From: Candidatus Nomurabacteria bacterium
Lineage (GTDB): Bacteria > Patescibacteriota > Saccharimonadia > Saccharimonadales > JAGQNJ01
Reading direction: 5' to 3'
DNA: 64,000 nucleotides
Assembly (NCBI GenBank): GCA_023898625.1
Contig: CP060231.1
Span: 413,986 to 477,985, forward strand
In this document: in pieces, positions 1 to 20,187 of the stretch
Layout: each line of letters opens with the position of its first letter
Numbering within the stretch: position 1 is the first letter of the stretch
Made by a program: the position numbers and the translations under genes
Notes under the pieces: model-generated
What the model was told of the DNA's origin: nothing
Seen by the model: the letters and a program-made list of their open reading frames with translations, nothing else
The model's database searches: none

Positions 1-588
1 CAAATCTGGAGACGTATTGAGCTAGTTAATACATGGTATTTTTTTGGTCTGTTTGTGATATTTTTAATAATTGGTGCAACAGCTGTTAGACAAAATAACC
101 TAAAGTCAATTGAGTTAAGAGAAGCAGTTGTCGAGAAAGATAAGCAAAATGGTGATGTCGAGTCTGCTCTTCGCATACTTCGTAAGCATATTTATTCCCA
201 TATGAATGCTGGACTTTCAAATGGAGCCACTCAACAGCCTATACAGCTAAAATATCGATACGAGCGGTTAGTAGAAGCAGAGAAGAAAAAGTCTGCCGAC
301 AGTAATCAAGTCTATTCTGACGCTCAAGCATACTGCGAACAACGTTTTGGCCAGGGGTCATTGCGAGAAGGTAGAGTGCCGTGCGTTCAGCAATACATAG
401 CTGATCATAGTGCAAACAATGAAGTATCTAAAATTCCTGACGCACTGTTTAAGTTTGATTTTGTGAGCCCTGCATGGTCACCAGATTTAGCTGGCTGGAG
501 CTTACTACTGTCGGGAATATTTTTGGCATTATTTTTGATTCGCTTCTTAACAGAACGCTGGTTTAAGGCCATGGTTAAAGATATTTAG
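1..588 (+). CDS. Hypothetical membrane protein, 5'-partial (frame open to window start; listed ORF begins at a GTG at 55)
   Basis: The ORF 55..588 has no in-frame stop upstream to position 1; hydrophobic segments at both ends (TWYFFGLFVIFLIIGATAV; LLLSGIFLALFLIRFL). No recognisable domain. Confidence 0.35.
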   Translation, partial: QIWRRIELVNTWYFFGLFVIFLIIGATAVRQNNLKSIELREAVVEKDKQNGDVESALRILRKHIYSHMNAGLSNGATQQPIQLKYRYERLVEAEKKKSADSNQVYSDAQAYCEQRFGQGSLREGRVPCVQQYIADHSANNEVSKIPDALFKFDFVSPAWSPDLAGWSLLLSGIFLALFLIRFLTERWFKAMVKDI

Positions 589-788
589 ATAAGCGTAAAC
601 GTTGTATAAATTATACATAGTACGACTTCATTTTTTAGGGAAAAATTATAGCCACCTCTGTTTATTCCTGATTATGGCCTTTAGTCGCTGTAGTATGTAC
701 AGTTTTAGATGAAAAAATAGTTGACAACACCAAAGGTAACAGAGTATGTTAGGGGTACTAATGTAAACCTAAAGAGGGAGAAGAATAA

Positions 789-983
789 ATGGCTTACAAG
801 CACACGAACAGCAAAGGTGTAACATACTACCTAAACACTAAAGAAGTTACATTGCGTGGTGGCAAACAACAACGAATTTACTACTTTAGCAAAGACGAAC
901 GACCAGAAGGCACAGATTTGCCAGACGGATACACAGTTAATGAAAACCCACGAAATGGTTTCTTGACTGTTAAAAAAGGCTAA
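789..983 (+). CDS. Small basic protein (64 aa), unknown function
   Basis: Sigma70-like promoter (TTGACA about 721, -10 about 745), strong RBS AAGAGGGAGAAG 8 nt before the ATG, and a 13-bp-stem terminator immediately downstream. Lys/Arg/Tyr-rich sequence. Confidence 0.6.
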   Translation: MAYKHTNSKGVTYYLNTKEVTLRGGKQQRIYYFSKDERPEGTDLPDGYTVNENPRNGFLTVKKG

Positions 984-1003
984 GAAGCAAACTTAAGTGT
1001 TAC

Positions 1004-1040
1004 AAATAACACCCTTTTTACTAAGGGTGTTATTTGTATA
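1004..1040 (+). terminator. Rho-independent terminator after the 64-aa gene
   Basis: Inverted repeat AAATAACACCCTT / AAGGGTGTTATTT with a 6-nt loop, followed by a T-rich tract. Confidence 0.7.
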
Positions 1041-1078
1041 TTGTGCAAAATATTTGAAAGCATGGTATAATATTTGTT
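1041..1078 (+). promoter_or_regulatory. Promoter with extended -10 (TGGTATAAT) for the 99-aa gene; near-leaderless geometry
   Basis: TTGTGC ... TGGTATAAT ending about 9 nt before the ATG at 1079, so the predicted TSS lies within a few nt of the start codon. Confidence 0.4.
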
Positions 1079-1378
1079 ATGAGCGAAGAGTATAATGGTG
1101 GCCCTGGTTGGGTGGAAAACGAAGACGGTGACGTTGTTGTCCCACAGGGAGAGCCAGAACTAGACCCAAGAGCACCCTATATCAATGAAAGTGACCTGAG
1201 AGATACTCATTTACATTTTGATACAGATGAAGTCGATCCACGTGCTCCAATATCCAGAAAAGAAGCCCGGCGATTGAACCAAGAAGCTGAGGATGATAGG
1301 GGGTATTCGGTTACACCTAAGCCTAGTGATGTCAGAGAACTGCCTGGCAAAGATGGGCGTCCAACTAATTGGAAATAA
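1079..1378 (+). CDS. Acidic hypothetical protein (99 aa) with duplicated D-P-R-A-P motif
   Basis: ORF with two copies of (L/V)DPRAP(Y/I); very acidic; no known domain recognised. Confidence 0.5.
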   Translation: MSEEYNGGPGWVENEDGDVVVPQGEPELDPRAPYINESDLRDTHLHFDTDEVDPRAPISRKEARRLNQEAEDDRGYSVTPKPSDVRELPGKDGRPTNWK

Positions 1379-1402
1379 AGACGAAGATAAATTGATTAGC
1401 TT

Positions 1403-2218
1403 ATGACCCAAATTCCAGGACAAGGTTCGTTTGAGTTCGAACCAACACCACAACCACCAGAAGTAGAAGGACTTGACCTTGAAAGGCGAATTTCTACCAG
1501 TGGACTTATAAAGTATTTTGCTGAAGCAAGAAATTTAAGTGAAGCAGGGGTAAACCCAGACTTTATCGAGTATCTAAAACCCTTAACTCTTGAAGCGGGA
1601 TTGTATGTCCCAGAAGGCAAGACAGATCGTGATATCGATACAGCTCGAGGCCCTGTGATATTCCCGGCTGCGGAGTACAAGGTATTAACAAAGAGTCCGA
1701 TTCATATCGCCAGTACTGCTTCAGTTGGAGTAAAGAAAGCTCGCCAAAATGATATGGATAAAGAAGCTGTTGATTTGGCATCAAAAAGAGCGTCTGGGCA
1801 TGCATTGACAAGCCAGCTTAAGAGGGCTAGTGGGTTATTTGACCAACTAAAAACAAAGGAAACAGCACTTAAGATGATAGAGTCTGAGATATATAGTGCT
1901 CGTGGCACCGGTTATTATGCTCACTATTCTATTGGGGTAATGTCACCGTTGATACTTACTGCGGAAGAAGCAATTTTTGATGCACTTGATGTTGTAGCTA
2001 CAACGGGTGGATGGACTGAAGAACAATTTTCCGATGCCCAGAAAGCACTAAAGTATCAACTTTTTGGGCAACACAAAGACCGATATAGTTATTGGCGTGG
2101 TTACGTTCCGGTGGCACGACGTTATGCGCGCAAAAGGCGGTTAGTGGTGCAAAGTTCGATAGGATTAATAGAGCGTGAGTTGACAAAGTACCAGCAATTT
2201 TTGGATGATGAACAGTAA
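1403..2218 (+). CDS. Hypothetical protein (271 aa) with N-terminal PGQGSF motif
   Basis: Long ORF with an RBS-like GATTAG..ATG context; no recognisable domain. The N-terminal IPGQGSFEFEP is shared with the ORF at 26822. Confidence 0.55.
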   Translation: MTQIPGQGSFEFEPTPQPPEVEGLDLERRISTSGLIKYFAEARNLSEAGVNPDFIEYLKPLTLEAGLYVPEGKTDRDIDTARGPVIFPAAEYKVLTKSPIHIASTASVGVKKARQNDMDKEAVDLASKRASGHALTSQLKRASGLFDQLKTKETALKMIESEIYSARGTGYYAHYSIGVMSPLILTAEEAIFDALDVVATTGGWTEEQFSDAQKALKYQLFGQHKDRYSYWRGYVPVARRYARKRRLVVQSSIGLIERELTKYQQFLDDEQ

Positions 2219-3179
2219 AATTGCCAACTTACCAAAACCATTCTTTGTTCTTGCCCCCATGGATGATGTTACAGATACTGTTTTTAGGCAGATTGTGGCA
2301 GATTTAGCTCCTCCAGATTTATTTTTCACAGAATTTGTCAATGTTGATGGTCTTCAGAGTCCTGGCAGAGGTAAACTATTACCAAAGTTAAGGTTTGCAG
2401 ATAAAGAACATCCAATCATTGCTCAAATTTGGGGAAAAAACCCTAAAAATTATTACAAAACCACAAAGGATATTATTGCTATGGGGTATGACGGCGTTGA
2501 TATCAATATGGGGTGCCCTGACAAGGCAGTAGTCAAAAATGGTTGCTGTAGTGCATTGATTGAGAATCGAGAATTGGCAGGGCAGATTATCGAGTCAGTT
2601 AAGCAGGCTTCACAAGACTCCTTCCCTGTTTCCGTTAAAACACGTGTAGGATTTACAACGATAGACATGAGCTGGATAGAGTTTCTGCTATCACAAAAAC
2701 TTAACATGTTAACAGTTCATCTAAGGACTACAAAAGAAATGTCTAAGGTACCAGCACATTGGGAGTTAATGGACGAAATAGTGGCTTTGCGGGATGCAAT
2801 CTCCCCTTCTACGTTGTTGGTTGGAAACGGAGATGTTTTATCACGGGAACAAGGTCTTGTACTCGCTAAATCACATAAGTTAGATGGAGTAATGATTGGT
2901 CGAGGTGTATTTAGCGACCCAAAAGTATTTATGGATAATTCTGATTGGAGTCAAGCAACAAAACAGGTGAGAATAGATTTGTATCGCAAACATGTGGAAC
3001 TGTTCGCAAGCACTTGGCAAAATAACGAGAGGCGCATTCCTACCCTGAATAAATTTTGTAAAGTATATATTCAAGGTTTTGACGGAGCGAAAGAGTTACG
3101 AGAACGGCTAATGAATGCAAAAACTACAATAGAATTGACCTCAATATTAAACTCATGTCAAGAAACCGAGAAATTGTGA
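2205..3179 (+). CDS. dus: tRNA-dihydrouridine synthase (Dus family, FMN TIM barrel)
   Basis: FVLAPMDDVTDTVFRQI, MGCPDKAVVKNGCCSALI and KTRVGF motifs typical of Dus. Overlaps the upstream gene by 14 nt (operon). Confidence 0.85.
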   Translation: MMNSKIANLPKPFFVLAPMDDVTDTVFRQIVADLAPPDLFFTEFVNVDGLQSPGRGKLLPKLRFADKEHPIIAQIWGKNPKNYYKTTKDIIAMGYDGVDINMGCPDKAVVKNGCCSALIENRELAGQIIESVKQASQDSFPVSVKTRVGFTTIDMSWIEFLLSQKLNMLTVHLRTTKEMSKVPAHWELMDEIVALRDAISPSTLLVGNGDVLSREQGLVLAKSHKLDGVMIGRGVFSDPKVFMDNSDWSQATKQVRIDLYRKHVELFASTWQNNERRIPTLNKFCKVYIQGFDGAKELRERLMNAKTTIELTSILNSCQETEKL

Positions 3180-3198
3180 ATAAAAACAGGTATAGTTA

Positions 3199-3468
3199 GT
3201 GTTGATGACATTGCCTAACATACAAATACTAGCTCAGGTACAAGAAGACGGTAGCTTTTCTGTTGGTGTGTTGACTGTTACGGCTCTTATTATTGGCTTG
3301 CCTATTCTATTATTGATTGTTTGGTTGAAAGTCGATCAAATCAGACATAAAAGGCCTTTGCAAGAAATTGATCCGAATGTTAAATACACCTTTTGGCATC
3401 ACATCAAGGTTGTTACAATACCAATGTTCTCTTATCGCATAACCTTCATGGTTCAAAAACGTAAATAG
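3199..3468 (+). CDS. Small hypothetical membrane protein (89 aa)
   Basis: ORF with one clear TM helix (VLTVTALIIGLPILLLIVWL); no homolog recognised. Confidence 0.3.
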   Translation: MLMTLPNIQILAQVQEDGSFSVGVLTVTALIIGLPILLLIVWLKVDQIRHKRPLQEIDPNVKYTFWHHIKVVTIPMFSYRITFMVQKRK

Positions 3469-3671
3469 CCTCTTCCAATCCCTAACCATAACCAGTACAA
3501 TAATACTCAGTACATTAAGTAGTTGAGTGGTACCAACAAGTCGTAGTAAGTCATACTTACATACATCATATGTAACACCCTGTATTCATCACGAATACCT
3601 TATCTCAACAACTAATTAACGAATTAGTAGTATATAACAACTAATCTATAGATAAATACGAATTCATTAAT

Positions 3672-6584
3672 ATGAAACTAAACCCCAAAGCCCTACTATC
3701 CAAACTACCACTACCTTTTTGGGCCTCCTTCTATCTCTTCCTCATCATACTCACCATACCAGTACTAGCTTATATAGGAACACTCAGTAAAGCAGACCCC
3801 GGAACCCTAACAGTAACCATCAATCAAAAAACAGGAACAACAGATCCTAACCCTTCCTACACTTCTGTATTCACTGTAGTATTCAGTGAAGCCATAGACA
3901 GTAATACCTTCACTAATACAGACATTACATTAGGTGGTACAGCCCCAGGTCAAACTATCCAATCCATCACCGAAGCTGGAACCTTCAACAAAACTACCTA
4001 TGAAGTCAGAATCCAAGCTACTGGAGCCGGGACCATCGTACCGAGTATTGGACAGGAGTTAGTCAGTGCGGTCAATGGTGGGAGTGGGACCAATCAAGCC
4101 AGCACGAGTACGGATAATAGCGTGACGTATGATGGGACGTATAGTCCGAATGAGTTTGTGTTTAAAATTAATATGGTTAGTTCAGGAAAATTTTATATAC
4201 ATAATTCAGATCACCCTGATATTCCTGGAAGCTTTACTGTAGATTGTAATAACGACGGCACGAATGAATTTATAAATGTATCAGTACTTGCGGATTGTAA
4301 TTATGTTTCTTCGGGTGAGTATGTAGTGAGCATAACTGGTTATTTGCCTCACACGATATTTAGTGGTGGGACAGCGCAAGATCAGCCTACCCCCATGGAT
4401 ATTATTCAATGGGGTAATATGCAATGGAATAGCATGGTTTATATGTTTAATAATTCTTATGATGTGACCATATCCGCTATTGATGCACCAAATTTGAGTA
4501 ATGTTACAGATATGAGTTATATGTTTTCTGGTGCAAACCTATGCCACGGTTTTAATATGTTACTTCAACCATGCGCGTCTGGATTTAATTCAAACATCAA
4601 TCATTGGAATGTTAGCAATGTTACGAATATGAGCTATATGTTTAATGCTTCAACAGCCTTCAATAAACCACTCAATAATTGGGACACAAGTAGTGTTACA
4701 AATATGACTGGTATGTTCAGTCATGCGAATTCCTTTAATCAGCCACTTAATAATTGGAATGTCAGTAATGTCACAGACATGAGCTATATGTTCGGTAAAA
4801 AACCACTAACATTAAATCCACAATGGTCGTTTGCGCCCAATTCCTTCAATCAACCACTCAATAATTGGGACACAAGTAGTGTTACAAATATGACTGGTAT
4901 GTTTGAGGATTCGACAGTTTTTAACCAACCATTAAATAATTGGAATACTGGAAACGTTACTAATATGCAGGATATGTTTAGGGAGTCAGCCGCCTTCAAT
5001 GCGGACATCAGCACTTGGAATACTAGCAATGTTACTAACATGAGTTATATGTTTGGATGGGAGCGGGAACGAGATACGCCACCAATAGGGCCAACTGGTC
5101 ACGTACCTTTCAATCAACCACTAAATAATTGGAATGTCAGCAATGTTACGAATATGAGCAATATGTTCAGACTAACAAGCCAATTCAATCAACCACTCAA
5201 TAATTGGGACACAAGTAGTGTTACAAATATGACTGGTATGTTTCAGAGGAACCCTATTTTTAACCAACCATTAAGCGATTGGAATACTAGCAACGTTACG
5301 TCTATGAGAAATATGTTTGCTAATGCATCCTCATTCAATCAGTCGTTGAATAGTTGGAGTGTTAATAACGTTTCAGATATGGGATTTATGTTTGATAGTG
5401 CTACAACTTTCAATCAACCCCTAAATAATTGGAATGTCAGCAATGTTACGAATATGGGTTATATGTTCAGGGCTACTACTCAATTTAACCAACCATTAAG
5501 CGATTGGAATACTGGAAACGTTACTAATATGGGTGCAATGTTCTTAGGGGCTAGTAGTTTTAACCAATCTTTAGGTGAGTGGAATATAGGTAGTGTTACT
5601 AGTATTGGCCTATTTGGCAATACTTCTGGCCTTTCTGTTTCCAACTACGACAATACATTAATAGGATGGTCGTCTCAATCTCTTCATAACTATCTAACCT
5701 TTGATGCTGGTACTAGTAAGTATTGTAACTCAGAAACACAAAGACAGAGTATTATCACTAACCACTCCTGGACTATTAATGATAGTGGTAAAGATTGTAG
5801 CTCTATTGGTTCAACTGAATTCATCACTACCTGGAAGACAGACAATCCAGGAGTCAGCGGAAGCAACCAAATAACTATACCTACCTTTTCAGGAGAAACC
5901 TACAACTATAACGTAGACTGGGGAGACTCCACCACCAGCTCTAACCAAACCGGAAATTCAACCCACACCTACTCATCACCAGGAACCTACACAGTTAAGA
6001 TAACCGGAACCTTCCCTAGGATATACTTCAATGGAACAACCGACCATGACAAAATCCTAACTATTGAACAATGGGGAACAAACCCTTGGACGTCAATGGC
6101 TCATGCATTTGAAGGGGCATCTAATTTAACAATTCCTGCTACTGATGCACCGAATCTATCTGGTGTAACAGATATGAGCTATATGTTCTCTAGCGCCTCC
6201 AACTTCAACTCCGATCTCAGCTCTTGGGATACCAGTAATGTTACGAATATGAGCTATATGTTCTCTAGCGCCTCCAGCTTCAACTCCGATCTCAGCTCTT
6301 GGAATACTAGTAATGTTACGAATATGAGCTATATGTTCTCTAGCGCCTCCAGCTTCAACTCCGATCTCAGCTCTTGGAATACTAGCAATGTTACGGATAT
6401 GAGCTATATGTTCTCTAGCGCCTCCAACTTCAACTCCGATCTTAGCTCTTGGAATACTCAATGTTACTATGAGCGGTATGTTCTAGCGCCCAGCTTCAAC
6501 TCCGATCTTAGCTCTTGGAATACTAGCAATGTTACGGATATGATGGTATGTTCTCAGCGCCTCCAGCTTCAGCTCCGATCTTAG
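3672..6584 (+). CDS. Giant surface repeat protein, N-terminal part (signal peptide/TM, two DUF285-type 26-residue-repeat modules). Most likely the 5' portion of one roughly 10 kb gene continuing in 6588..13721; interrupted by indels in a tandem-repeat stretch
   Basis: N-terminal hydrophobic leader. More than 25 repeats of F(N/S)QPLNNW(N/D)(V/T)SNVTNMSYMF (DUF285 / Mycoplasma-Listeria-type 26-aa surface repeat). Each module ends with a Cys-containing cap (...GWSSQSL..YCNSETQRQ.IITN.SWTINDSGKDC). After about 6455 the frame is garbled by small deletions in otherwise perfect 78-bp repeats, giving the stop at 6584. Confidence 0.8.
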   Translation: MKLNPKALLSKLPLPFWASFYLFLIILTIPVLAYIGTLSKADPGTLTVTINQKTGTTDPNPSYTSVFTVVFSEAIDSNTFTNTDITLGGTAPGQTIQSITEAGTFNKTTYEVRIQATGAGTIVPSIGQELVSAVNGGSGTNQASTSTDNSVTYDGTYSPNEFVFKINMVSSGKFYIHNSDHPDIPGSFTVDCNNDGTNEFINVSVLADCNYVSSGEYVVSITGYLPHTIFSGGTAQDQPTPMDIIQWGNMQWNSMVYMFNNSYDVTISAIDAPNLSNVTDMSYMFSGANLCHGFNMLLQPCASGFNSNINHWNVSNVTNMSYMFNASTAFNKPLNNWDTSSVTNMTGMFSHANSFNQPLNNWNVSNVTDMSYMFGKKPLTLNPQWSFAPNSFNQPLNNWDTSSVTNMTGMFEDSTVFNQPLNNWNTGNVTNMQDMFRESAAFNADISTWNTSNVTNMSYMFGWERERDTPPIGPTGHVPFNQPLNNWNVSNVTNMSNMFRLTSQFNQPLNNWDTSSVTNMTGMFQRNPIFNQPLSDWNTSNVTSMRNMFANASSFNQSLNSWSVNNVSDMGFMFDSATTFNQPLNNWNVSNVTNMGYMFRATTQFNQPLSDWNTGNVTNMGAMFLGASSFNQSLGEWNIGSVTSIGLFGNTSGLSVSNYDNTLIGWSSQSLHNYLTFDAGTSKYCNSETQRQSIITNHSWTINDSGKDCSSIGSTEFITTWKTDNPGVSGSNQITIPTFSGETYNYNVDWGDSTTSSNQTGNSTHTYSSPGTYTVKITGTFPRIYFNGTTDHDKILTIEQWGTNPWTSMAHAFEGASNLTIPATDAPNLSGVTDMSYMFSSASNFNSDLSSWDTSNVTNMSYMFSSASSFNSDLSSWNTSNVTNMSYMFSSASSFNSDLSSWNTSNVTDMSYMFSSASNFNSDLSSWNTQCYYERYVLAPSFNSDLSSWNTSNVTDMMVCSQRLQLQLRS

Positions 6585-6860
6585 CTCTTGGATATGAGCG
6601 GTATGTTCTCCAGCTTCAACTCCGATCTTAGCTCTTGGAATACTAGCAATGTTACGGATATGAGCGGTATGTTCTCTAGCGCCTCCAGCTTCAACTCCGA
6701 TCTCAGCTCTTGGAATACTAGCAATGTTACGGATATGAGCGGTATGTTCTCTAGCGCCTCCAACTTCAACTCCGATCTCAGCTCTTGGGATACCAGTAAT
6801 GTTACGGATATGAGCTGGATGTTCGGTGGCGCCTCCTCTTTTGATCAATCACTTGCCTCT
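6150..6860 (+). repeat. Near-perfect 78-bp (26-codon) tandem DNA repeats inside the giant gene
   Basis: The unit gatatgagc(t/g)(a/g)tatgttctctagcgcctcc(a/c)(g/a)cttcaactccgatctcagctcttggaatactagcaatgttacg is repeated about 9 times with over 95% identity. Units between about 6455 and 6620 carry short deletions. Confidence 0.9.
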
Positions 6861-9800
6861 TGGAATATGGGGTCTGTTACATCTGCTGAGAGTATGTTTG
6901 GTGATCCAGTGGAATATTACATCACTATGCTAGAGGCTATGGCTGGTGTTCCTGCCAGTGAATGGGATAATAGCGTAGCAGAAAGCGTAATGGGCCCAGG
7001 TGCAACGGTAGATGATTTGTTTGCATACCTAAGCTCAATAGTTGGGGCTGAAGTAACCCAAGCTAACTACACAGACTTTATGAACATAGAAATGGGTCTC
7101 TCCACCGTCAACTACGATGCCACCCTAACAGGCTGGTCTTCTCAGTCTCTTCAGAGTGGAGTAACCTTTGGTGCTGGAGATAGTAATTACTGTAACTCCG
7201 AAACCCAAAGACAAAATATTATCACTAACTACTCATGGACTATTAATGATAGTGGTAAAGACTGTAATTTTGAACTAAGTGCTCCCCGTAATTTGACAGC
7301 AGAAGTTACAAGTAGCACATCAATACTTCTAGCATGGCAGGCACCAGAGTATGATGGAGGTTCGTCAATTTCAGATTATACAATTCAGTATAAACCTACC
7401 AATGACAGTGCATGGATAGTACTTAATGACGGCATTAGCACAAATCTTAATGCGACAGTAACTAGTTTGAGTCCTGGACAAAGTTATGATTTTCGTGTGT
7501 CAGCAGTAAACTCAAATGGAGCTGGACCTTATGCTGAAACAACTAAATTGTTAAGTATGCAAACCTTGCCTGGGGTTCCAGAAGGATTTTCTGCTACTGC
7601 CTACAATTATGTTGACGATGAAGTTAACACAACAATATATGCATTGCCAAGTTTGTCCTGGCAAGAACCACAACAGGGTAGCCCAATAGACTATTACACG
7701 TTACAGTTTAGGAAGAGTGGGGAGTCTGCTTGGCGTAATTATGTAGATGCCTCTATCGTCACTACAAATATAAACTTTGATTTTAGTTTTAGTAGTATGG
7801 ATTTGCAGGATGTTAACAATAATACTCAAGAACAAATTGATTTATTAAATGAACTAAATCAAGCAATGATTCTTGGAGAAAGTTATGAATTTCGTGTTGC
7901 CGCAAATAATAACTTAGGACAGGGTTTATTTACTGATCCAATTAGCTTTGTTCCATCATTCACAACGAATGATTGCAGTGTTCTTCATGACCTACTTCAG
8001 ATGTATGGTATAAAAGATCGAGATTCAGATGTGGCGCTGAATGCTCATTTTGTTTTATTACAAAACATAGACTGTTCTGATACGATTAATTGGAATAGTG
8101 GCGATGGATGGAGCCCTATCCCTAATGACCCGCAGTACGTATTTAATGGTGAATTTGATGGAAATGACCATTCGATTAACAATATGTATATCAATAATAG
8201 TACAGATATTGGTGTAGGTATGTTTGGTATTTTAAAAGATACAAATATAACTAATCTTTCGCTAATTAATAGTAACGTTAGTGGCCATATATATTATGAC
8301 TCGGATGAAGGTGGTTCTGGATCGTATGTTGGCATTCTTTCAGGAATTGCAAGTTCAGATACTACGATTACGAACGTTACAGTTAGCGGTTCTGTATATT
8401 CCGAATGGTCTGCGGGTGGGGTTGTTGGGTATAGTGATAGCGATAATGCAGGCAACATAATGATTAATTGGGTAACATCGCACGCCAATGTAAGTGCTGC
8501 GAAAGGAACTTTTTCGGGTGGACCAGTTGGTGGTCTTGTTGGAATAAACTACGGCGGTGATAGAAGTCAAGGTCAATTTACGCAAGGTAAATTTGTTGTT
8601 GATACACAAGGAAATATTTACACCATTAATTCATCAAATTATAACAATAAAGTACTAAAATTTGATACATCGGGAAATCTAATAGACTCTTGGGGTAATG
8701 AAGGAAACGATCTTGATGAGTTTAATCAGTTTGCCCCAAATGATATTTCAATTGATGCACAGAATAACATATATTTCTCAGGGGTAAAAAAATTCAATAG
8801 TAATGGAGGATTTGAAGGTCAATATGGCAATTACTTAGGTTATGTATATGTTGATAATAGCGACAATATTTATGTGGTTGGTGAAACTGATTATTATAAT
8901 GGAACACCACAAGCTATTCATAAAATCAATGCAGAGGGCACTTTGTTAGCATCTTTCTTTACCAAAGAAGAAGTTGTGGGCAGAGAAAATGCAAGCCCCA
9001 GTGATATAGTCGTTGGTCAAAACGGGGATATTTACGTAGCAGAGAGATATAGCAATCAAGTACGTCGATATGATAGTAATGGTATATATATTGGAAGTAT
9101 TGAATTGGTTAATGGGAACAATGAGTTAATGATTACTAACGATAATCATTTATATGCACTAGGCAACGGCAGTATTAGCCAATATGATTTGCTCGGTAAT
9201 CTTACATTGTCTATACCTTCATATTCATTGCCATCATATATGACAGCGGATGAAGATAGTAATATATACGTATCAAACAATTCAACACATGAATTGACAA
9301 AATATTCTCCTAGTGGGATTGAAGTTGGTTCGCTTGATGCTGGTTATAAAGCAGATGAAATTTACGCCCCTGGAAAGATTGTTATCCATGGAGAATATAT
9401 GTATGTCGCTTCAGATTACGGGAAAGCAATAAAAATATTCAACAAAGATACCTTTTCATATATAAATAAGATTGATGGGAAAAAAGACGATAATCCTTAC
9501 AAGACATTAATAGTAGATAGTTCTGCTAACGGGCAATTAAATGCTAAATATTCAGGTGGATTAGTGGGAGCTAATACCGGTAATGCAATAGAAGATGTAT
9601 TTGAAGTGCCAGGCTTGGAATTACAACATACAAATGCTTCAGTTACAATTAATGATGCTTGTACTTTTGCTGGGGGGTTGATCGGACTCACCTTGGTCGG
9701 AACGCGTATTGAGGATTCTAGCTCAGGAGGTAATGTGTCGTGTAAGGGCGGAGATTTTCTTGATAGTTCAACATCAGTCGATATTTCCACAGGTGGATTG

Positions 9801-12800
9801 GTTGGAAGACAGCATAATTCTTCTTTGTTAAATATTGCAAATTCATCATTTAATGGGAATGTCTCCTCAAGAGCGTATAATTATTCTGATAATTTATCAT
9901 ACTCGGGTGGACTAGTTGGATATTCATACTCAACAGGAATGGAATATATCGATAGGTGGTCTCTTTTAATTCCCTCGAACTATTTAGGAATTTCGGGGGT
10001 ATCAATTACAAATAGCTCCGCGAATGCTACTGTTCATACTGAATTAGCTAGATTTGGTGGCGGAGCAGGTGGCTTAGTAGGAAGGGCAACTGTTATCAAT
10101 GTGGTTGGCTCAAGTGCTCACGGTAATACTCTAGTCGATCAAATATATGCAGATAATCTAACAGGTCCAACGTATAGCGCGGGTGGTGTAGTTGGAGAAT
10201 CAGGAATATCTTCGATAACCTCATCTGATAGCGACAACCAGGTCACTGTTAATGCTACCGGAATGCAAGATCAGTCATACGCTATGCTATATGCAGGAGG
10301 TTATATTGGCCTTGGTGATATATATCAACATTTCAATCAATTAAATAGGGATGGAGATATTGTGATACATGGACGTAATGAATTACCGACAGATAATAAT
10401 TCTTATGGCATAATAGCGGCAGGTGGCTTAGCTGGTCTTGCCATGAGTTACAAAGAGTCAACTATCGAAAACAGTACGTCTTTGAGCGATATATCTATAG
10501 ATGGAGTCAGAGGTTCCACAAATATAAATATGAGTAAGTTTATTGGCGGTTTTGTGGGTGGCTTAGTTGGATTTGCTCAGAGTGACACAAACTATGTAAT
10601 TAAGAATAGTTCTACTAGTGGTAATCTTGTGGGTACTGGCAACTCATCAAGTACACCAACCGATTTCATGCATTATTTAACCTCAGCAGGAGGTTTAATA
10701 GGACAATATCTTGGCTCAACTCTTAATCATAATACTACTATCACAGGTAGTTTGAATATTCAAAATTCGCAAAGTAGCTCTAATGTATCTGGAAAATCTC
10801 TTCCTATGAGCAGAGCGTATGCGAGCTATAGTGGAGGGGTTGGAGGTTTGGTCGGATCATTTACCTCAAGTGGGGGCAGTATTGAGCGTTCATTTTCACA
10901 AGGCGATGTCAACGGCACAAACGTAGGTGGCTTAGTCGGAAAGGCTGCATCTTATGGTGAGAGCTCGTTTTCAATCAATGATACGTACTCCACAAGTAAC
11001 GTTGTTAGTTCTAATTTGATAGTCGATGCAGAAATTGATGATCAGTTAAAAAAGATTGGTTTTAGTGGATCTGCGGGAGGTTTGGTTGGGACAATAGCTG
11101 GCGTAGACATCAATAGTTCTTATGCATCTGGAAGGGTTGAGGCGTCTGGATCAGTTGATATGATTGGTCTTGGTGTGAATAATGTTATGGTTAGTCAATC
11201 ATCAGATACTTCATTATCAAGAGTAATTTATGCTTTTAATAGCGTTGCTGGGGGGCTCGTAGGACGTTATATTCAGAATACACCAGTCGCCCAAGACGCA
11301 TTATCTGGTAGTTATATAACAAAAAGTTTCGCGACCAGTAAACTAGTCAGCCCAAATGGTAGTGAGCAAGGTGCTATTATTGGCGAATATTTTGATTACG
11401 CAACAATAGCTAGTGTGATTAATCCTGAGTTTAATATTGATAATTTAGATATTGTTAGTACACAGGATTCGTTAAGTCATGTATATCATGATCGATTTGT
11501 AACAGATTCAAATATTTGTGGTAATGAGATCTATATAACGAGCTATACGCCAGCCATTCCTGAAAATAATATACCTGAAATTGTGACTTCTGACTTTCGT
11601 GATTCTTTTAGCTGTCACCCCATCAACACCGACGGCTCTCAACCTAACTACTTCAAGAACAATTCTACCAACCCCCCCTTGAATCAATGGAACTTCTCTA
11701 CTATATGGAAGACTAACTGTACTAACTATCCAGACTTTGTAGGCTCAACCAACTGTAATCCATCCAACCCTCCAGAAAACCCAGGTAACGGCAATCCTCC
11801 AACCACCCCTACAACTCCAACCACCCCTACAACCCCAACCAATCCTCCAAAGACTCCTAGTACCACTAAACCACCTACTCCCACAGAATCAGACACCCCT
11901 TCATCTTCATCCAATAATCAGTACTACTCCAACCCTCAATCTACAGCACTACCAGCTCCCCTATCTAAAGTAGTCAAAGGTTCCTTCATGCAATCTCTAG
12001 TGAACTATACTGCTAACAATATACCTAAACCCGTAGCTAAAGCCATTCCATACAGCCTACTCATACTTCTACTAGCTCTCTCAGCCCTCTATGGCTATTC
12101 TAGCTATCTAGAAAACAAAAGAAGACAAGCTCTCCAAGCTCTCATCACTCGCTTTAAATCTCTACTATCGGCTAGAGCTACCTTCCTACGTATTACCTCC
12201 CACTACATCAATACACCGATCACTAAGATCCAAGGAACCATAGAACTACTAGCTATGGGTACTACTTCAACCACAACTGCTAATACCACAACAGCAAGTA
12301 CCAACACCACAAACAATAACTCAAGTACTAACAATAACTCTACAGGCTCTAATACCAACCCTCCTACTAATACCAGCTCTACTCCTCCAAGTAACACTAC
12401 TAGCTCTACCAGTAATCCAGGCACTACCTACACCCCTAACTCTAGCTCTCAGTCTGGTTCAGCTTCCGTAAACAGCTCTAGCAATCAGGCTAGTACCACC
12501 AGCTCCATCAGTTCTACTCCTAGCTCCCCTAATAGCATTAGTATACCTATTAATACTAACTCTAGCTCTCAGTCTGGTTCAGCTTCCGTGTTCACCTCAA
12601 CCCTAGCCACTACAGCTACCACTCTAACTATCCCAGAAGCCTCTATCGTAGCCTCTAAGTCAGCCATCAAGAGTCTCACTAACCATGCCAATGAACTACT
12701 AGATGAAGGACAATCCCTCACCGGAAGACAACAAGCTAACATCAGAAACCTAGAACAAAGAAAAGGACTTAGCTTCCTAACCCATCCTTTCTTCTGGCTC

Positions 12801-13721
12801 CCAGTAGTAGTTATCTCTACCTTAGTAGTACTACTCAACATCATCTTCATTCAAGCTGAACGCTATACCCCTACAGCTATTACTATTGCTTCTCAACTTA
12901 TCCTAGGCTTCGTTGGTGTTATAGCTTTAGGTGTCAGCTACTACTTCTACCGTTCCTTCCAGTCCCAAAGACAAGCTCTACTAACCGAACAAGAAATAGA
13001 ACAAGAGTTCAATGCTCGCCAAGCTAACTTCATAGCTGATGCCTACAACAAGCTCAACGATGACATCATAATCCTAGAAGGTGTCAGCCAAGACCTAGCT
13101 AAGTATCCTAAAGTCCGTAACTTCAACCAAGGCCTCAATGAACTAAAAGACATAGTCTCCCAACTAGAAAAACTCAGCAACCTATCTAAGCATGTCCCAG
13201 GACTGCAATACCACACCAACCTAAGCAGTACTATATCTACTACCCTAACTAACCTCAGATCCCTAGCTGACCAACAGAACATCACTATAACTACCAACAA
13301 CATCAAACCCAACCAAAACGTCAACATAGAAGCTAATGCCCTAACCCATCTACTGTCAGCTCCACTCAAGAACGCCATCTCAGCTAGTACTGCTGGCTCT
13401 AATATAGAACTATCCCAATCTATCCACAAAGCTAACAAATCTAGCCAGATAAATAAACCTAACACAGTAACCACTAACCCTAACAATACCAACCTACCTA
13501 TCCAAATAACTATTACCGATCATGGCAAAGGCATACCCCCAGAACAACTAAACAATATCTTTACCCCATTCAACTCAGCCCATAGCCTAGAACACTTCAC
13601 TGATACCGGACTAGGACTAGACCTCTACCTATGCAAAGTAATTACAGAACAATACAACGCCAACCTAACCATCACCAGCCAACCAGGAGAAGGCACAACA
13701 GTGATAGTGGGGATGGGGTGA
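6588..13721 (+). CDS. Giant surface repeat protein, C-terminal part: DUF285 repeats, FN3 domains, NHL-type beta-propeller repeats, GLUG (GGLVG) motif repeats, Pro/Thr linker, TM helix, histidine-kinase H-box, S/T/N-rich low-complexity insert, two TM helices, C-terminal HATPase_c
   Basis: Continuous 2377-codon ORF. FN3-like segments (LSAPRNLTAEVTSSTSILLAWQAPEYDGGSSISDYTIQYKP). NHL-like repeats (QGNIYTINSSNYNNKVLKFDTSGNLIDSWG). More than 15 GGLVG/GGVVG GLUG motifs. PTTPTTPTTPTTPTNPP linker. H-box LRITSHYINTPITKIQGTIELL. HATPase_c N/G1/F/G2 boxes (LTHLLSAPLKNAI; ITITDHGKGIPPEQLNNIFTPF; DTGLGLDLYLCKVI...GEGTTVIV). Confidence 0.8.
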   Translation: MDMSGMFSSFNSDLSSWNTSNVTDMSGMFSSASSFNSDLSSWNTSNVTDMSGMFSSASNFNSDLSSWDTSNVTDMSWMFGGASSFDQSLASWNMGSVTSAESMFGDPVEYYITMLEAMAGVPASEWDNSVAESVMGPGATVDDLFAYLSSIVGAEVTQANYTDFMNIEMGLSTVNYDATLTGWSSQSLQSGVTFGAGDSNYCNSETQRQNIITNYSWTINDSGKDCNFELSAPRNLTAEVTSSTSILLAWQAPEYDGGSSISDYTIQYKPTNDSAWIVLNDGISTNLNATVTSLSPGQSYDFRVSAVNSNGAGPYAETTKLLSMQTLPGVPEGFSATAYNYVDDEVNTTIYALPSLSWQEPQQGSPIDYYTLQFRKSGESAWRNYVDASIVTTNINFDFSFSSMDLQDVNNNTQEQIDLLNELNQAMILGESYEFRVAANNNLGQGLFTDPISFVPSFTTNDCSVLHDLLQMYGIKDRDSDVALNAHFVLLQNIDCSDTINWNSGDGWSPIPNDPQYVFNGEFDGNDHSINNMYINNSTDIGVGMFGILKDTNITNLSLINSNVSGHIYYDSDEGGSGSYVGILSGIASSDTTITNVTVSGSVYSEWSAGGVVGYSDSDNAGNIMINWVTSHANVSAAKGTFSGGPVGGLVGINYGGDRSQGQFTQGKFVVDTQGNIYTINSSNYNNKVLKFDTSGNLIDSWGNEGNDLDEFNQFAPNDISIDAQNNIYFSGVKKFNSNGGFEGQYGNYLGYVYVDNSDNIYVVGETDYYNGTPQAIHKINAEGTLLASFFTKEEVVGRENASPSDIVVGQNGDIYVAERYSNQVRRYDSNGIYIGSIELVNGNNELMITNDNHLYALGNGSISQYDLLGNLTLSIPSYSLPSYMTADEDSNIYVSNNSTHELTKYSPSGIEVGSLDAGYKADEIYAPGKIVIHGEYMYVASDYGKAIKIFNKDTFSYINKIDGKKDDNPYKTLIVDSSANGQLNAKYSGGLVGANTGNAIEDVFEVPGLELQHTNASVTINDACTFAGGLIGLTLVGTRIEDSSSGGNVSCKGGDFLDSSTSVDISTGGLVGRQHNSSLLNIANSSFNGNVSSRAYNYSDNLSYSGGLVGYSYSTGMEYIDRWSLLIPSNYLGISGVSITNSSANATVHTELARFGGGAGGLVGRATVINVVGSSAHGNTLVDQIYADNLTGPTYSAGGVVGESGISSITSSDSDNQVTVNATGMQDQSYAMLYAGGYIGLGDIYQHFNQLNRDGDIVIHGRNELPTDNNSYGIIAAGGLAGLAMSYKESTIENSTSLSDISIDGVRGSTNINMSKFIGGFVGGLVGFAQSDTNYVIKNSSTSGNLVGTGNSSSTPTDFMHYLTSAGGLIGQYLGSTLNHNTTITGSLNIQNSQSSSNVSGKSLPMSRAYASYSGGVGGLVGSFTSSGGSIERSFSQGDVNGTNVGGLVGKAASYGESSFSINDTYSTSNVVSSNLIVDAEIDDQLKKIGFSGSAGGLVGTIAGVDINSSYASGRVEASGSVDMIGLGVNNVMVSQSSDTSLSRVIYAFNSVAGGLVGRYIQNTPVAQDALSGSYITKSFATSKLVSPNGSEQGAIIGEYFDYATIASVINPEFNIDNLDIVSTQDSLSHVYHDRFVTDSNICGNEIYITSYTPAIPENNIPEIVTSDFRDSFSCHPINTDGSQPNYFKNNSTNPPLNQWNFSTIWKTNCTNYPDFVGSTNCNPSNPPENPGNGNPPTTPTTPTTPTTPTNPPKTPSTTKPPTPTESDTPSSSSNNQYYSNPQSTALPAPLSKVVKGSFMQSLVNYTANNIPKPVAKAIPYSLLILLLALSALYGYSSYLENKRRQALQALITRFKSLLSARATFLRITSHYINTPITKIQGTIELLAMGTTSTTTANTTTASTNTTNNNSSTNNNSTGSNTNPPTNTSSTPPSNTTSSTSNPGTTYTPNSSSQSGSASVNSSSNQASTTSSISSTPSSPNSISIPINTNSSSQSGSASVFTSTLATTATTLTIPEASIVASKSAIKSLTNHANELLDEGQSLTGRQQANIRNLEQRKGLSFLTHPFFWLPVVVISTLVVLLNIIFIQAERYTPTAITIASQLILGFVGVIALGVSYYFYRSFQSQRQALLTEQEIEQEFNARQANFIADAYNKLNDDIIILEGVSQDLAKYPKVRNFNQGLNELKDIVSQLEKLSNLSKHVPGLQYHTNLSSTISTTLTNLRSLADQQNITITTNNIKPNQNVNIEANALTHLLSAPLKNAISASTAGSNIELSQSIHKANKSSQINKPNTVTTNPNNTNLPIQITITDHGKGIPPEQLNNIFTPFNSAHSLEHFTDTGLGLDLYLCKVITEQYNANLTITSQPGEGTTVIVGMG

Positions 13722-13807
13722 GAGGTAAAATCTAATAATAAATTTACATGTTTTCATTCGACTTGTGATAAAATAATCGTTAGCACGTTAAGGAGGTATA
13801 GGTAATA

Positions 13808-14278
13808 ATGGATATTTCATCAGGTAGCAATGAAAAAGTTAAAGAATCAAAATCAGCATCACCTTCAAAGAAGAAGCTGACACCAAAGCAAAGAAAGATA
13901 ATCTTCTCAATAATTGTTGTTTTGTTATTAGTTTTTGCTGGCATAGGAATTTATAAGTATGCTTACGATAAAGGATATGATAAGGGCATGGAAGCGGGTA
14001 AGAAGGCTAGCGCTTCAAAGAGTCCAACTGATTTATTTAGCAATCTCCAAAATCCATTTAAAACACTTACTGGTTCTGTAGAAAAATTAGAAGGTGAAAA
14101 ACTTACGATTACGACAAGTAAAGGTGAAGTAAAAACACTTAAAATAACTGACAAGACCAAGATAACCAAAAAGACAGAGACGTTGAACAAGGATTCTTTA
14201 ACTAAGGGTGCTAAGGTTACTATCTTTACTACGGGCGAAGGTGATAGTTTGAGTGCTACTAGAATAGTAGTAAGATAG
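13808..14278 (+). CDS. Hypothetical membrane-anchored protein (156 aa)
   Basis: Strong RBS AAGGAGG upstream; N-terminal Lys-rich tail plus TM (IIFSIIVVLLLVFAGIGIY); Lys/Thr-rich beta-type C-terminal region. Confidence 0.55.
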   Translation: MDISSGSNEKVKESKSASPSKKKLTPKQRKIIFSIIVVLLLVFAGIGIYKYAYDKGYDKGMEAGKKASASKSPTDLFSNLQNPFKTLTGSVEKLEGEKLTITTSKGEVKTLKITDKTKITKKTETLNKDSLTKGAKVTIFTTGEGDSLSATRIVVR

Positions 14279-14324
14279 ACGGTGTTTTCCGTGCTGTTGT
14301 CGGAGAAAATTATTATATTTACAA

Positions 14325-14975
14325 ATGAAGAAGAAATCATCTAGGCTTTCAAAAAAATATAAGATTATTATATTTACGATAATGGTTTTATTTATTGTTG
14401 GTATTTTTATTGTTACGAAAAGACATAAGAATACTGAAAAACCAAACGCACCAGAGACCGTTACATATTCTACCGATACCCCAGATGAATCTAAGGCTAA
14501 TGCTGATACGTATAGTTGGAAGGGTGCCGAAAACGATCCAAAGAAATTGCGTATTCAGTCGATTGGTGTCGATGCCTATGTACAACGTATGGGGGTTGAT
14601 CAGAATAATAAGATTGCTGTACCAAACAATATTCACCTCACAGGATGGTTTACTAATAGTCAACAACCTGGACAGGATGGTCTTTCAATAATCGCTGGTC
14701 ACGTTACTGGGAAAAAAGGCGACGGGGTATTTAAGCATTTGGGTGATATGAAAGCAGGGGATTTATTTGAGGTAGAAACCGGCAGTGGCGCAATCAAACA
14801 CTACAAAGTGATTGAAGTGAAACAGATGAAAGAATCTGAGTCAGCAGATTTTTTATTTTCTCAAAAACCTAACACTAAGAGCCAGCTTAATTTGATAACT
14901 TGTGGTGGTAGATTTGACTCATCAGCCCACATGTATGATGATAGGGTTATTGTGGTTGGTGAATTGCAAGAGTGA
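14325..14975 (+). CDS. Sortase (class E/F-like cysteine transpeptidase)
   Basis: N-terminal TM anchor, catalytic His in SIIAGHV, TLxTC-type Cys motif LNLITCGG, and a conserved Arg in YDDRVIVVG. Confidence 0.85.
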   Translation: MKKKSSRLSKKYKIIIFTIMVLFIVGIFIVTKRHKNTEKPNAPETVTYSTDTPDESKANADTYSWKGAENDPKKLRIQSIGVDAYVQRMGVDQNNKIAVPNNIHLTGWFTNSQQPGQDGLSIIAGHVTGKKGDGVFKHLGDMKAGDLFEVETGSGAIKHYKVIEVKQMKESESADFLFSQKPNTKSQLNLITCGGRFDSSAHMYDDRVIVVGELQE

Positions 14976-15064
14976 TTTACTGCAAGTTACTTGATGTAGC
15001 CTATAATTTTTATTATACTAAAGCTTATATAAGTATTTATCGAAAAACAGGGTAACAAACTAAT

Positions 15065-15721
15065 ATGCCAAGACTACCAATACCAGGGTCAGATAGAGGT
15101 CAGTGGGGCGATGTGCTCAATGAATACTTGAGGGTTTCCCATAATGAAGACGGTACCCTGAAGGGATCGTTAATTTCAGGTCCTGGCGCTACCGGTGCCA
15201 CCGGCCCACAAGGCCCAGCTGGTTCACAAGGCGCAACGGGTGCTACTGGCGCTGGTTCTACCGGTGCCACCGGCGCCACTGGACCGCAAGGTGTAGCTGG
15301 TTCTCAAGGCGCCACCGGAGCTGGATCTACAGGTGCCACCGGGCCACAAGGAATAGCTGGTGTAGCTGGAGGTGCTGGTGCTACCGGCGCCACTGGACCG
15401 CAAGGTGTAGCTGGTTCTCAAGGCGCCACCGGAGCTACTGGCGCTGGCGTTACGGGAGCCACCGGACCACAAGGGCCAGCTGGTTCTGCTGGTACTCAAG
15501 GTGCAACGGGCGCTACCGGAGCTGGTGCTACAGGTGCCACCGGACCACAAGGAATAGCTGGTGTAGCTGGAGGTGCTGGCGCCACCGGCGCTACTGGCCC
15601 GCAAGGCGTAGCCGGTAATTCGGGTGAAGGTGTTATTGTAGTGGCTTCAAACTGGGTTACAACTGATGGATTGCCTTCAGGAACTCCAACAGGAACAATT
15701 ATTCTTAGGAGAAAGCCATAA
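15065..15721 (+). CDS. Collagen-like triple-helix repeat protein (Gly-X-Y), no signal peptide
   Basis: About 45 consecutive G-X-Y triplets ([16 protein letters not shown]...), GC-rich relative to its flanks; N-terminal region without a hydrophobic leader. Confidence 0.8.
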
Positions 15722-16177
15722 ATGGGGTTGGTTCTCGGGAAAGATGGTAAAACTCGATCTGTTGAAATTAACACAGGCTCAGCTGTGTCTCAAATTTCTA
15801 CTCTTTATGTCGGGTTGCTACAGTCTGCCCCAGCAAATATGGACGGTATGGATTTAGCGACTTTAATATCTTCTGGTCAAGGAAATGAGTTTACGATAGG
15901 TGCTTCGTTTTATACTGGTAGAAAATCAATAACAGTAGGTTCTATTAGTGCCGATGAAAATGGTGCAATTTGCTATAACAATAACGGTAGTCCTGTTGAG
16001 TGGACAAATACAACCGGCTCTGACGTTAATGTGCTAGCTTTTTTTATTACGGACGTTGCTAGTGGTGGATCTGGCAAAGTTTTATGGGTTGGAACACCAG
16101 ACGCTGGCACTGCAACAATCGGCAACACATATAAGGCAAGTATTTCTGCAAACGATTTAATGCTCAAGGTAGACTAA
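15722..16177 (+). CDS. Hypothetical protein (151 aa), translationally coupled to the collagen-like gene
   Basis: ATG directly abuts the TAA of the upstream gene (TAAATG); no signal peptide; no known domain. Confidence 0.55.
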   Translation: MGLVLGKDGKTRSVEINTGSAVSQISTLYVGLLQSAPANMDGMDLATLISSGQGNEFTIGASFYTGRKSITVGSISADENGAICYNNNGSPVEWTNTTGSDVNVLAFFITDVASGGSGKVLWVGTPDAGTATIGNTYKASISANDLMLKVD

Positions 16178-18970: not shown

Positions 18971-19023
18971 GTGTGATTCTTTTACAACAGCTTGCTTTCC
19001 GCAGTAAGTGCTAGTATTTAATT

Positions 19024-20187
19024 ATGAAAAAGAGTAGCCAAATGACATTTCATGTAGTTTCGCTTCCACACACTCAAACGACAATGGAATATGAAGCGTG
19101 TGCCTATACATCTAAAACCAGAAAGTTCTGTAATATGATGAAATCACTAGGGCATAAAGTGTATCTATACGCATCTGAGGAGAATGAGGCAAATGTTGAC
19201 GAGTTGATTACGATTGCGCCAAAAGATGATCAGCAAAAATGGTTCGGCGACAACGACTTTAAGCAAAATTTTTTCAACTTAACCTGGAATATTGAGGATG
19301 AGCATTGGCAGAATACTAACAGACGTGCAATCAGCCAAATAAAAAAACGAATTAATAAAAAGGATTTTATTTGCATTATTGGTGGCGTTTGTCAAAAGCA
19401 AATTGCCGATGCATTCCCAGCGCACATGTCTGTTGAGTATGGTATTGGTTACGAGGGGGTTTTTGCACCATTTAGGGTATACGAATCGTATTCTCATATG
19501 CACTATGTGCAAGGAAAATTAAATGATGACAACGGAAGGTTCTACGACGCAGTCATCCCAAACTACTTCGAGCCAGAAAACTTTCAGTTCAAGAATAAAA
19601 AAGAAGATTATTTTTTGTTTCTAGGGCGATTTATACCTCGAAAAGGTGTAGAGATTGCTGTAGAAGTTACAAGAAGATTAGGTAAACGACTGGTGTTGGC
19701 AGGGCAAGGAGTTAGTAAGGTAGAAGGAAATACTATTTATGGCGATGACTTTTCGGTTAGTGGGGATCATATTTTGCATGTCGGGCATGCAAATGTTGCT
19801 CAGCGGTCGGCTTTGCTTCGTAACGCAACCGCAACTTTTATGGCGACGACCTATATTGAACCTTTTGGTGGGGTGGCAATCGAAAGCCTGCTTTGTGGAA
19901 CCCCAGTAATAGCTACGGATTTTGGGGCATTTGCCGAGAATATCCAGCATGGAGTTCACGGCTATAGGTTTAGGACAATTGGTGAGGCAGTATGGGGTGC
20001 TAAGAATGTCCACAAGTTAAATAACAAAGTAATCCATGAGTATGCCGTAGAAAACTTTAGCGTAGAACGGGTTAAGTATCTATACCAAGCATATTTTGAG
20101 CAACTGCAAACATTGTGGGAAGAAGGATTCTATTCAAACTGGGATAAAGGTGTCGCTAAATATCAAAGATATAAAAAGTTCTCGTAG
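19024..20187 (+). CDS. Glycosyltransferase family 4 (GT-B, GT1 superfamily)
   Basis: LFLGRFIPRKGVEIAVEV and the E-X7-E motif EPFGGVAIESLLCGTPVIATDFGAFAE. Confidence 0.8.
   Translation: MKKSSQMTFHVVSLPHTQTTMEYEACAYTSKTRKFCNMMKSLGHKVYLYASEENEANVDELITIAPKDDQQKWFGDNDFKQNFFNLTWNIEDEHWQNTNRRAISQIKKRINKKDFICIIGGVCQKQIADAFPAHMSVEYGIGYEGVFAPFRVYESYSHMHYVQGKLNDDNGRFYDAVIPNYFEPENFQFKNKKEDYFLFLGRFIPRKGVEIAVEVTRRLGKRLVLAGQGVSKVEGNTIYGDDFSVSGDHILHVGHANVAQRSALLRNATATFMATTYIEPFGGVAIESLLCGTPVIATDFGAFAENIQHGVHGYRFRTIGEAVWGAKNVHKLNNKVIHEYAVENFSVERVKYLYQAYFEQLQTLWEEGFYSNWDKGVAKYQRYKKFS

Follow-up and report, generated by a model that had tools for sequence, protein, structure and literature searches.

A probable giant surface sensor kinase with a relocated phospho-acceptor histidine in Saccharibacteria

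A giant gene in a 64,000-nucleotide stretch of DNA from a Candidatus Nomurabacteria bacterium of the GTDB lineage Saccharimonadia (contig CP060231.1 of assembly GCA_023898625.1, positions 413,986 to 477,985; this whole stretch is hereafter called the window) joins an adhesin-sized, repeat-rich ectodomain to a kinase-type module. We conclude with moderate confidence that a single gene encodes a giant surface sensor kinase anchored in the membrane, which belongs to a Saccharibacteria-specific family in which the phospho-acceptor has been relocated; the kinase activity, the partner and the signal are what we infer from sequence. An in-frame TAG divides the gene into two open reading frames (ORF1 and ORF2). 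All coordinates are those of the window, and residue numbers of the kinase module are those of ORF2 unless stated otherwise.

The tail of the protein runs from a first transmembrane helix (TM1) through a HisKA-like hairpin (DHp1) bearing the H-box LRITSHYINTPITKIQG, two further transmembrane helices (TM2 and TM3) and a second hairpin (DHp2) to a C-terminal HATPase_c domain (Table 1). This is a more elaborate layout than that of the original prediction, made from the DNA letters alone, which had a plain tail of one transmembrane helix, H-box and HATPase_c: hydropathy identifies three transmembrane helices in ORF2, the H-box hairpin is separated from the ATPase by a transmembrane hairpin and a His-less DHp, and a 120-residue insert splits the H-box hairpin itself. 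Lys/Arg residues stand at the cytoplasmic ends of all three helices, which fits a topology with the ectodomain outside and both hairpins and the catalytic domain inside.

The HATPase_c domain with its N, G1, F and G2 boxes was predicted correctly, scoring 57-60 bits in Pfam against a gathering cut-off of 26.4 bits (the other gathering cut-offs used were HisKA 26.9, DUF285 25, NHL 20, Glug 20.5 and PKD_4 27 bits). Its ATP-binding motifs are strongly conserved among relatives (n=107), with the N-box Asn in all 107 sequences, the G1 Asp and two Gly in 102, 105 and 104, the F-box Pro and Phe in 104 and 99, and the two G2 Gly in 104 and 105. A 21-residue Asn/Thr/Lys-rich insert between the N and G1 boxes (13425-13490, ORF2 residues ~2280-2301), modelled with low confidence, is confined to the clade of the window and missing from all other aligned relatives.

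The phospho-acceptor candidate lies in the first hairpin. Its H-box can be aligned with those of SrrB and VicK and forms a near-invariant His-Tyr-Leu-x-Thr-Pro motif, in which the His is present in 126 of 129 sequences, the following Tyr in 116, the Thr in 121 and the Pro in 128. DHp2 takes the place of an ordinary DHp relative to the catalytic domain and can be aligned with the H-box of SrrB residue by residue, and the canonical His position there varies within the family, being His in 3 of 107 sequences and Asn2154 in the window. Both hairpins hang at a similar distance from the membrane: most members have 29-32 residues between TM1 and the His, and in the window His1872 follows TM1 by 31 residues and Asn2154 follows TM3 by 33. 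In 77 of 122 representatives the module shows exactly three hydrophobic segments; the median distance from the His to the C-terminus is 368 residues, and a nine-sequence alignment is free of insertions and deletions from TM1 to the H-box. One relative (P0055, L019 10001-19159, 3052 residues) has a canonical His-Glu-Leu in the proximal hairpin (RFITTAAHELQ) in addition to the upstream His-Tyr motif, and may represent the ancestral state, predating the loss of the proximal His.

The module was modelled twice. In a first model, computed with the insert kept and from five close sequences, the last ~255 residues match whole DHp-CA cores (CA, catalytic ATP-binding domain), e.g., that of ZraS, with a target TM-score of 0.72. 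A second model (the window module minus the insert, nine diverse sequences; pLDDT 75, pTM 0.69) predicts a single helix from TM1 into DHp1 helix 1 (residues 6-76), a return helix and TM2, followed by a single helix from TM3 into DHp2 helix 1 (residues 163-236), a return helix and the catalytic domain, i.e., two 70-residue helices reaching from the membrane into the cytoplasm, each with its return helix.

These features suggest how the protein might work. Binding to or pulling on the ectodomain, plausibly by contact with a host cell or another surface, would shift TM1 and the DHp1 helix attached to it, and the ATP-binding domain, held by DHp2, would phosphorylate the DHp1 His, whose depth below the membrane equals that of the lost DHp2 His (31 vs 33 residues). 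The phosphoryl group would then pass to an unlinked receiver protein. Ordinary kinases build a four-helix bundle from two subunits; here both hairpins of one chain may pack as a single four-helix bundle, making a single-chain pseudo-dimer. A bolder form of this proposal, which we put forward tentatively and consider doubtful, is that of a single-chain pseudo-dimeric kinase in which two DHp hairpins joined via a transmembrane hairpin, one keeping the His and the other the catalytic domain, would replace the two-subunit bundle and fix 'trans' phosphorylation within a monomer; epibiotic Saccharibacteria would sense their host by this device and exchange its ectodomains at the stalk.

The window gene does not stand alone. 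A profile search over 1.84 billion representatives returned 55 matches below 1e-30, and counts of family members refer to the best 149 matches, which are 50%-identity representatives. Among these, 82 exceed 1000 residues and 34 exceed 2000, the longest having 4413, and the match always ends at the C-terminus. Three sub-profiles (TM1 with the H-box; helix 2 with TM2 and TM3; DHp2 with CA) were all recovered in 81 of the 149, and within the window all three match ORF2 and no other ORF. Ectodomains differ across members (FN3, NHL propellers, DUF11, GLUG-like regions), and all members with a named source are Candidatus Saccharibacteria. Public names ('hypothetical protein', 'fibronectin type III domain-containing protein', '6-bladed beta-propeller', 'uncharacterized repeat protein') do not reflect the kinase tail. 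By profile evidence this is a sizeable, unrecognised family, confined to Saccharibacteria among its named members. The architecture was not found described in the literature on kinases or surface proteins of Saccharibacteria and Patescibacteria, including PMC10633639, a body of work covered incompletely, such that this is absence of evidence only.

A further profile search with the nine-member module alignment was swamped by ordinary kinases and added one relative (P0158), and a scan of the genome collection found, beyond a 63-residue remnant in one Saccharibacteria metagenome-assembled genome (MAG), three unrelated kinases only. This remnant (L003, 3498-3686), lying between Met-tRNA-synthetase-like and TatD-like genes, corresponds to the end of the catalytic domain at 67% identity and represents a family copy that has decayed. 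Two members, RTK94599.1 and RTK95272.1 (P0276 and P0287; 1656 and 2596 residues), have different ectodomains and the same locus-tag prefix EKI60, which indicates at least two paralogues in one Saccharibacteria genome (MAG).

Whether the window copy is intact depends on the TAG at 6582-6584. ORF1 and ORF2 share one frame and this codon is their sole separator, in line with the predicted single frame of ~3,350 residues with one interruption. The TAG is enclosed by three damaged tandem units of the DUF285 array, whose period is 75 nt; about eight small deletions account for the shortened units (66, 73 and 47 nt, a net loss of 39 nt) within 186 nt, and the flanking units are intact. A short-read contig assembled independently from another sample (L021) equals window 1-6417 at 99.9% identity without gaps and terminates at window 6417, 19 nt ahead of the damaged units. 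In L011 (GCA_046350715.1, a 939,581-bp contig) the giant gene is one unbroken ORF of 2707 residues, with a single DUF285 module against two in the window, module 2 being missing there; the size of the giant protein is 2,700 to 3,350 residues.

The clustering of deletions in near-perfect repeats and the 7.1 kb of open frame downstream indicate a fault of consensus or assembly, and the break of L021 right at the damage together with the intact copy in L011 point to an artefact, hence the TAG is most likely a mis-assembled tandem repeat rather than biology. True decay of DUF285 module 2, with the TAG and nearby deletions making this strain's copy a real pseudogene that leaves a secreted 970-residue fragment and a 2377-residue remainder that could not be exported, is possible but the less probable explanation: the stop and several indels do stand in the sequence as given, and decayed or truncated copies of the module are known (the remnant in L003 and a shortened form in L001), but the damage has the pattern of an assembly fault, the independent assembly of the same strain fails just before it, and the L011 relative is intact.

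Several observations weigh against a functional sensor kinase. Were the TAG real, ORF2 would be without an export signal and this copy defective. HisKA scores 19.1-20.2 bits in the window against 26.9 and matches positions 2-30 of the 66 in the profile, and in P0011, a relative without the insert, it extends over positions 2-62 at 26.3 bits, just below the cut-off; all NCBIfam kinase models fall far under theirs. The residue following the DHp1 His is Tyr and not Glu/Asp. Searches of the window (phmmer with four receiver queries against six-frame ORFs; Pfam on 32 ORFs), of the DNA up to 10 kb from the gene in L019 and L020, and of 148 kb of related loci (partly window-overlapping, with ~80 kb non-overlapping) found no receiver. 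The first structure model was poor as a whole (pLDDT 50), with the catalytic domain alone usable, and the packing of DHp1 and DHp2 in one bundle is hypothetical.

The short HisKA match has an explanation in the insert. It is limited to positions 2-30 because 120 additional residues split the hairpin; in most relatives the insert is absent or very short, with 3-15 residues from the H-box helix to helix 2, and this spacing, together with the extended match in P0011, suggests that the first hairpin is a complete DHp and the insert a loop addition. The 'unmistakable' H-box of the original prediction is upheld in part: the His is conserved in 126 of 129 sequences and the motif aligns to SrrB and VicK, whereas HisKA remains below the Pfam threshold and the pair is His-Tyr, not His-Glu/Asp. 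The proposed profile check of the C-terminal region came out equally divided, with HATPase_c above its cut-off and HisKA (19-20 bits) below 26.9. The expectation of no response regulator in the window was confirmed by the negative phmmer search. Two small conserved neighbours considered as hidden partners (89 residues upstream, 156 residues downstream) were rejected, being single-pass membrane proteins with no receiver-like features.

HisKA kinases use the Glu/Asp after the His in catalysis, and their H-box Thr serves phosphatase and transfer reactions. Two features, Tyr next to the His and the lack of a partner, leave room for reading the tail as a pseudokinase or ATP-dependent anchor, which would bind and perhaps hydrolyse ATP and take no part in a His-Asp phosphorelay; the His-Tyr motif would then be structural or serve other chemistry, and the tail's role would be to regulate the surface protein or to anchor it, e.g., by ATP-dependent conformational control. 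We judge this unlikely. It accounts for the absence of a receiver near the gene in three neighbourhoods, for the loss of the canonical CA-proximal His in 104 of 107 sequences and for Tyr in place of the catalytic acidic residue in 116 of 129, but near-invariant His, Thr and Pro are hard to explain without phosphoryl chemistry, and every ATP-binding motif is kept. Moreover, receivers do occur in the phylum, as at least one Saccharibacteria strain is reported to have a conventional pair of a NisK-like kinase with an adjacent regulator (PMC7567580).

The sensor-kinase reading further requires that adhesin and kinase be one protein. That the gene is real and a genuine fusion, not an artefact of one assembly, is supported by comparison with other loci, and the predicted covalent junction of an adhesin-sized ectodomain to a kinase-type module recurs in L011, in L007 and L008 and in 82 of 149 representatives, the long ones. 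The L011 ORF has the same order of parts, in a locus composed of Dus, an 87-residue ORF, the giant gene, a 156-residue ORF and a sortase, and L020 shows the same synteny with a 2163-residue gene. Close homologues of the C-terminal 578 residues are few. In the metagenome contigs L007 and L008 no stop interrupts the frame between the contig start and TM1, a stretch that runs from FN3 through a Pro-rich stalk, and the site required for an internal start reads Ile-Gly-Pro without a Met. A scan for promoters and terminators found 25 promoter-like sites vs 37 in shuffled sequence and no terminators, and is uninformative on an internal start. In L001 (420-2360), ~130 open codons covering the end of the GLUG region and the stalk precede the module, directly after a truncated 88-residue AAA_33 gene; either the contig is chimeric or the locus is a deletion derivative whose ectodomain is minimal.

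A pair of genes, one for an adhesin and one for a kinase of ~577 residues starting from the ATG at 11988, joined by a lost or mis-assembled stop, is accordingly very improbable: AAAGG lies 8 nt upstream of this ATG, a weak promoter-like site precedes it (11890-11918) and the L001 homologue P0003 (517 residues) was called as a stand-alone gene from a Met aligned with Met1801, but L007 and L008 have no Met there and remain open upstream into FN3, the L001 frame is open over its ~130 upstream codons with protein-level conservation of the GLUG end and Pro-rich stalk, the module forms the C-terminus of the 82 long representatives, and promoter-like sites are rarer than in shuffled sequence.

Compared with known systems, the catalytic core belongs by its sequence with the HisKA-class kinases (PhoR, WalK, SrrB, ZraS). 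Of the marks of this class the tail has HATPase_c with its boxes; HisKA above threshold, a His-Glu/Asp pair in the CA-proximal hairpin and an adjacent regulator were not found. Like HisKA sensor kinases in general (PhoR/PnpS, WalK/VicK, SrrB, ZraS, HK853), it has a CA domain with N, G1, F and G2 boxes, DHp2 and CA superpose on their DHp and CA cores, and the H-box resembles SHELRTP at Ser-His, Leu and Thr-Pro. It differs from them in that the His hairpin is not attached to CA, a transmembrane hairpin and a His-less DHp intervening, in the Tyr that replaces Glu/Asp after the His, in the absence of a detected adjacent regulator, and in an ectodomain of 1,000-4,000 residues of adhesin-type repeats.

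Other systems share single traits. The series TM2, 9-residue loop, TM3, DHp2 and CA reproduces the two-TM layout, with almost no outer loop, of the intramembrane-sensing kinases (BceS, LiaS), and BceS is among the structural matches, but here this unit has no phospho-acceptor His and is preceded in the same chain by a transmembrane helix, a His hairpin and a giant ectodomain. CheA likewise keeps its His unit apart from the dimerisation unit; however, it is soluble, carries the His in an HPt-fold domain on flexible linkers and uses separate receptors, whereas both helical units here are DHp-like and tethered to the membrane at each end. DivL of Caulobacter has a His-less core, without a second His-bearing hairpin and without a giant ectodomain. 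The hybrid two-component systems of Bacteroides combine a large extracytoplasmic beta-propeller sensor with kinase parts in one polypeptide, but theirs includes a receiver and a DNA-binding output in the chain, with a canonical DHp-CA and ~1,300 residues, as opposed to the adhesin-like ectodomain found here, which is two to three times larger. Finally, the repeat types of the ectodomain match those of PARCEL/DUF285 and GLUG surface proteins of Mollicutes and Firmicutes, which are lipoproteins or adhesins anchored in the wall and carry no cytoplasmic signalling module.

For the ectodomain, Pfam, hydropathy and composition agree with the predicted leader, two DUF285 modules, FN3, NHL, GLUG and Pro/Thr stalk. 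A hydrophobic segment occurs in the first 70 residues of 65 of the 72 relatives longer than 1000 residues. DUF285 (PF03382) scores 617.6 bits over eight stretches in ORF1 (cut-off 25) and 126 bits at the start of ORF2; the first module has 13 motif matches (ORF1 residues 277-616). In NCBIfam the ~25-residue units are PARCEL repeats (TIGR02167, 257.9 bits vs a cut-off of 30, 12 stretches in ORF1), and the protein thus has the tandem above-cut-off repeats of DUF285/PARCEL surface proteins. The NHL match at 8994-9071 scores 34.5 bits on a fragment (27-34 bits overall), above its cut-off of 20. Glug matches on fragments lie at 9786-9866 (30.2 bits), 10416-10493 (19.3 bits, below the cut-off of 20.5) and 10911-11006 (28.2 bits), the Pfam scan giving 23-30 bits, above 20.5. 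A sortase gene lies 600 nt downstream of the giant gene; no LP.[TSA]G motif is present in ORF1 or ORF2, hence the protein does not have the signature of a sortase-anchored wall protein.

L011 and the window share ~88% DNA identity upstream and over the ectodomain, rising to 99.2% over 11873-20954, the jump falling at 11871-11873 within the stalk; L002 also diverges from the window just upstream of 11871. A recombination joint seems to lie in the Pro/Thr stalk, at which ectodomains would be swapped or would diversify with the kinase module unchanged. L002 (98% identical, with another upstream part) was not relied on, as its 3' end repeats an internal segment and it is probably chimeric.

Table 1. 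Parts of the giant gene and their positions in the window (aa, amino acids)
Feature	Position	Strand	Remarks
ORF1, N-terminal part of the giant gene	3672..6584	+	970 aa; terminates at TAG 6582-6584
N-terminal leader, signal peptide or signal anchor	3702..3794	+	ORF1 aa 11-41, after Lys-rich aa 2-11; hydropathy scan
DUF285/PARCEL module 1 with C-terminal cap	4404..5816	+	~ORF1 aa 245-715; Pfam, NCBIfam; approximate boundaries
PKD-like Ig domain between the DUF285 modules	5817..6071	+	PKD_4 23.8 bits, below cut-off 27; aa 740-778
DUF285/PARCEL module 2	6069..7253	+	straddles the ORF1/ORF2 break
Three damaged 75-nt tandem units	6436..6621	+	enclose the in-frame TAG
ORF2, remaining ectodomain and kinase module	6588..13721	+	2377 aa
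Fibronectin type III (FN3) region	7278..7937	+	two fn3 matches, 88-91 bits; best at ORF2 aa 231-319
GLUG-type tracts on both sides of an NHL/beta-propeller-like segment	7995..11687	+	outer boundaries approximate
Pro/Thr-rich stalk	11751..11957	+	ORF2 aa 1722-1790
Internal ATG	11988..11990	+	ORF2 Met1801; aligns with the gene-caller start in L001
TM1	12045..12110	+	ORF2 aa 1820-1841; hydropathy; one continuous helix with the next helix in the model
DHp1 helix 1 with H-box	12111..12257	+	candidate phospho-acceptor His1872, codon 12201-12203
Ser/Thr/Asn-rich insert in the DHp1 hairpin loop	12258..12617	+	120 aa, 73% Ser, Thr and Asn together; clade-specific
DHp1 helix 2	12624..12767	+	model helix 83-109
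TM2 and TM3	12789..12950	+	TM2 12789-12851 (aa 2068-2088), TM3 12879-12950 (aa 2098-2121); 9-residue outer loop
DHp2, kinase-proximal hairpin without His	12951..13292	+	Asn2154 (codon 13047-13049) at the canonical His position
HATPase_c with N, G1, F and G2 boxes	13293..13721	+	Pfam match at ORF2 aa 2250-2374

The remaining window is ordinary chromosome (FtsH, MurJ, LepA, HrcA-GrpE-DnaK-DnaJ, TatC, tRNAs) with several further surface-type genes. Behind the sortase (14325-14975) come a collagen-triple-helix repeat protein (15065-15721), whose gene is of variable length or uncalled in other strains (L013, L015, L017), and a protein resembling the podophage fibre protein Gp80 (15722-16177, 28.8 bits). 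A BspA-type leucine-rich-repeat surface protein is encoded on the minus strand (20223-22070, LRR_5 204 bits) and ranges from 548 to 615 residues across L011-L015. Two other surface-type proteins, a 392-residue NHL propeller (31333-32511, 131 bits, four repeats) and a 645-residue protein with a Big_7 Ig domain (37960-39897), have no kinase module.

Saccharibacteria live attached to host bacteria, and the family described here, with proteins of 1,200-4,400 residues and a hard-wired kinase module, is a concrete and testable candidate for contact sensing. The module is also a natural experiment for signalling, with its acceptor moved to a hairpin across a membrane hairpin and the acidic neighbour of that acceptor changed to Tyr. 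If true, the pseudo-dimer would enable a giant adhesin that does not dimerise to pass information on contact or mechanical load through the membrane, and the fusion could let parasitic Saccharibacteria sense what their surface touches.

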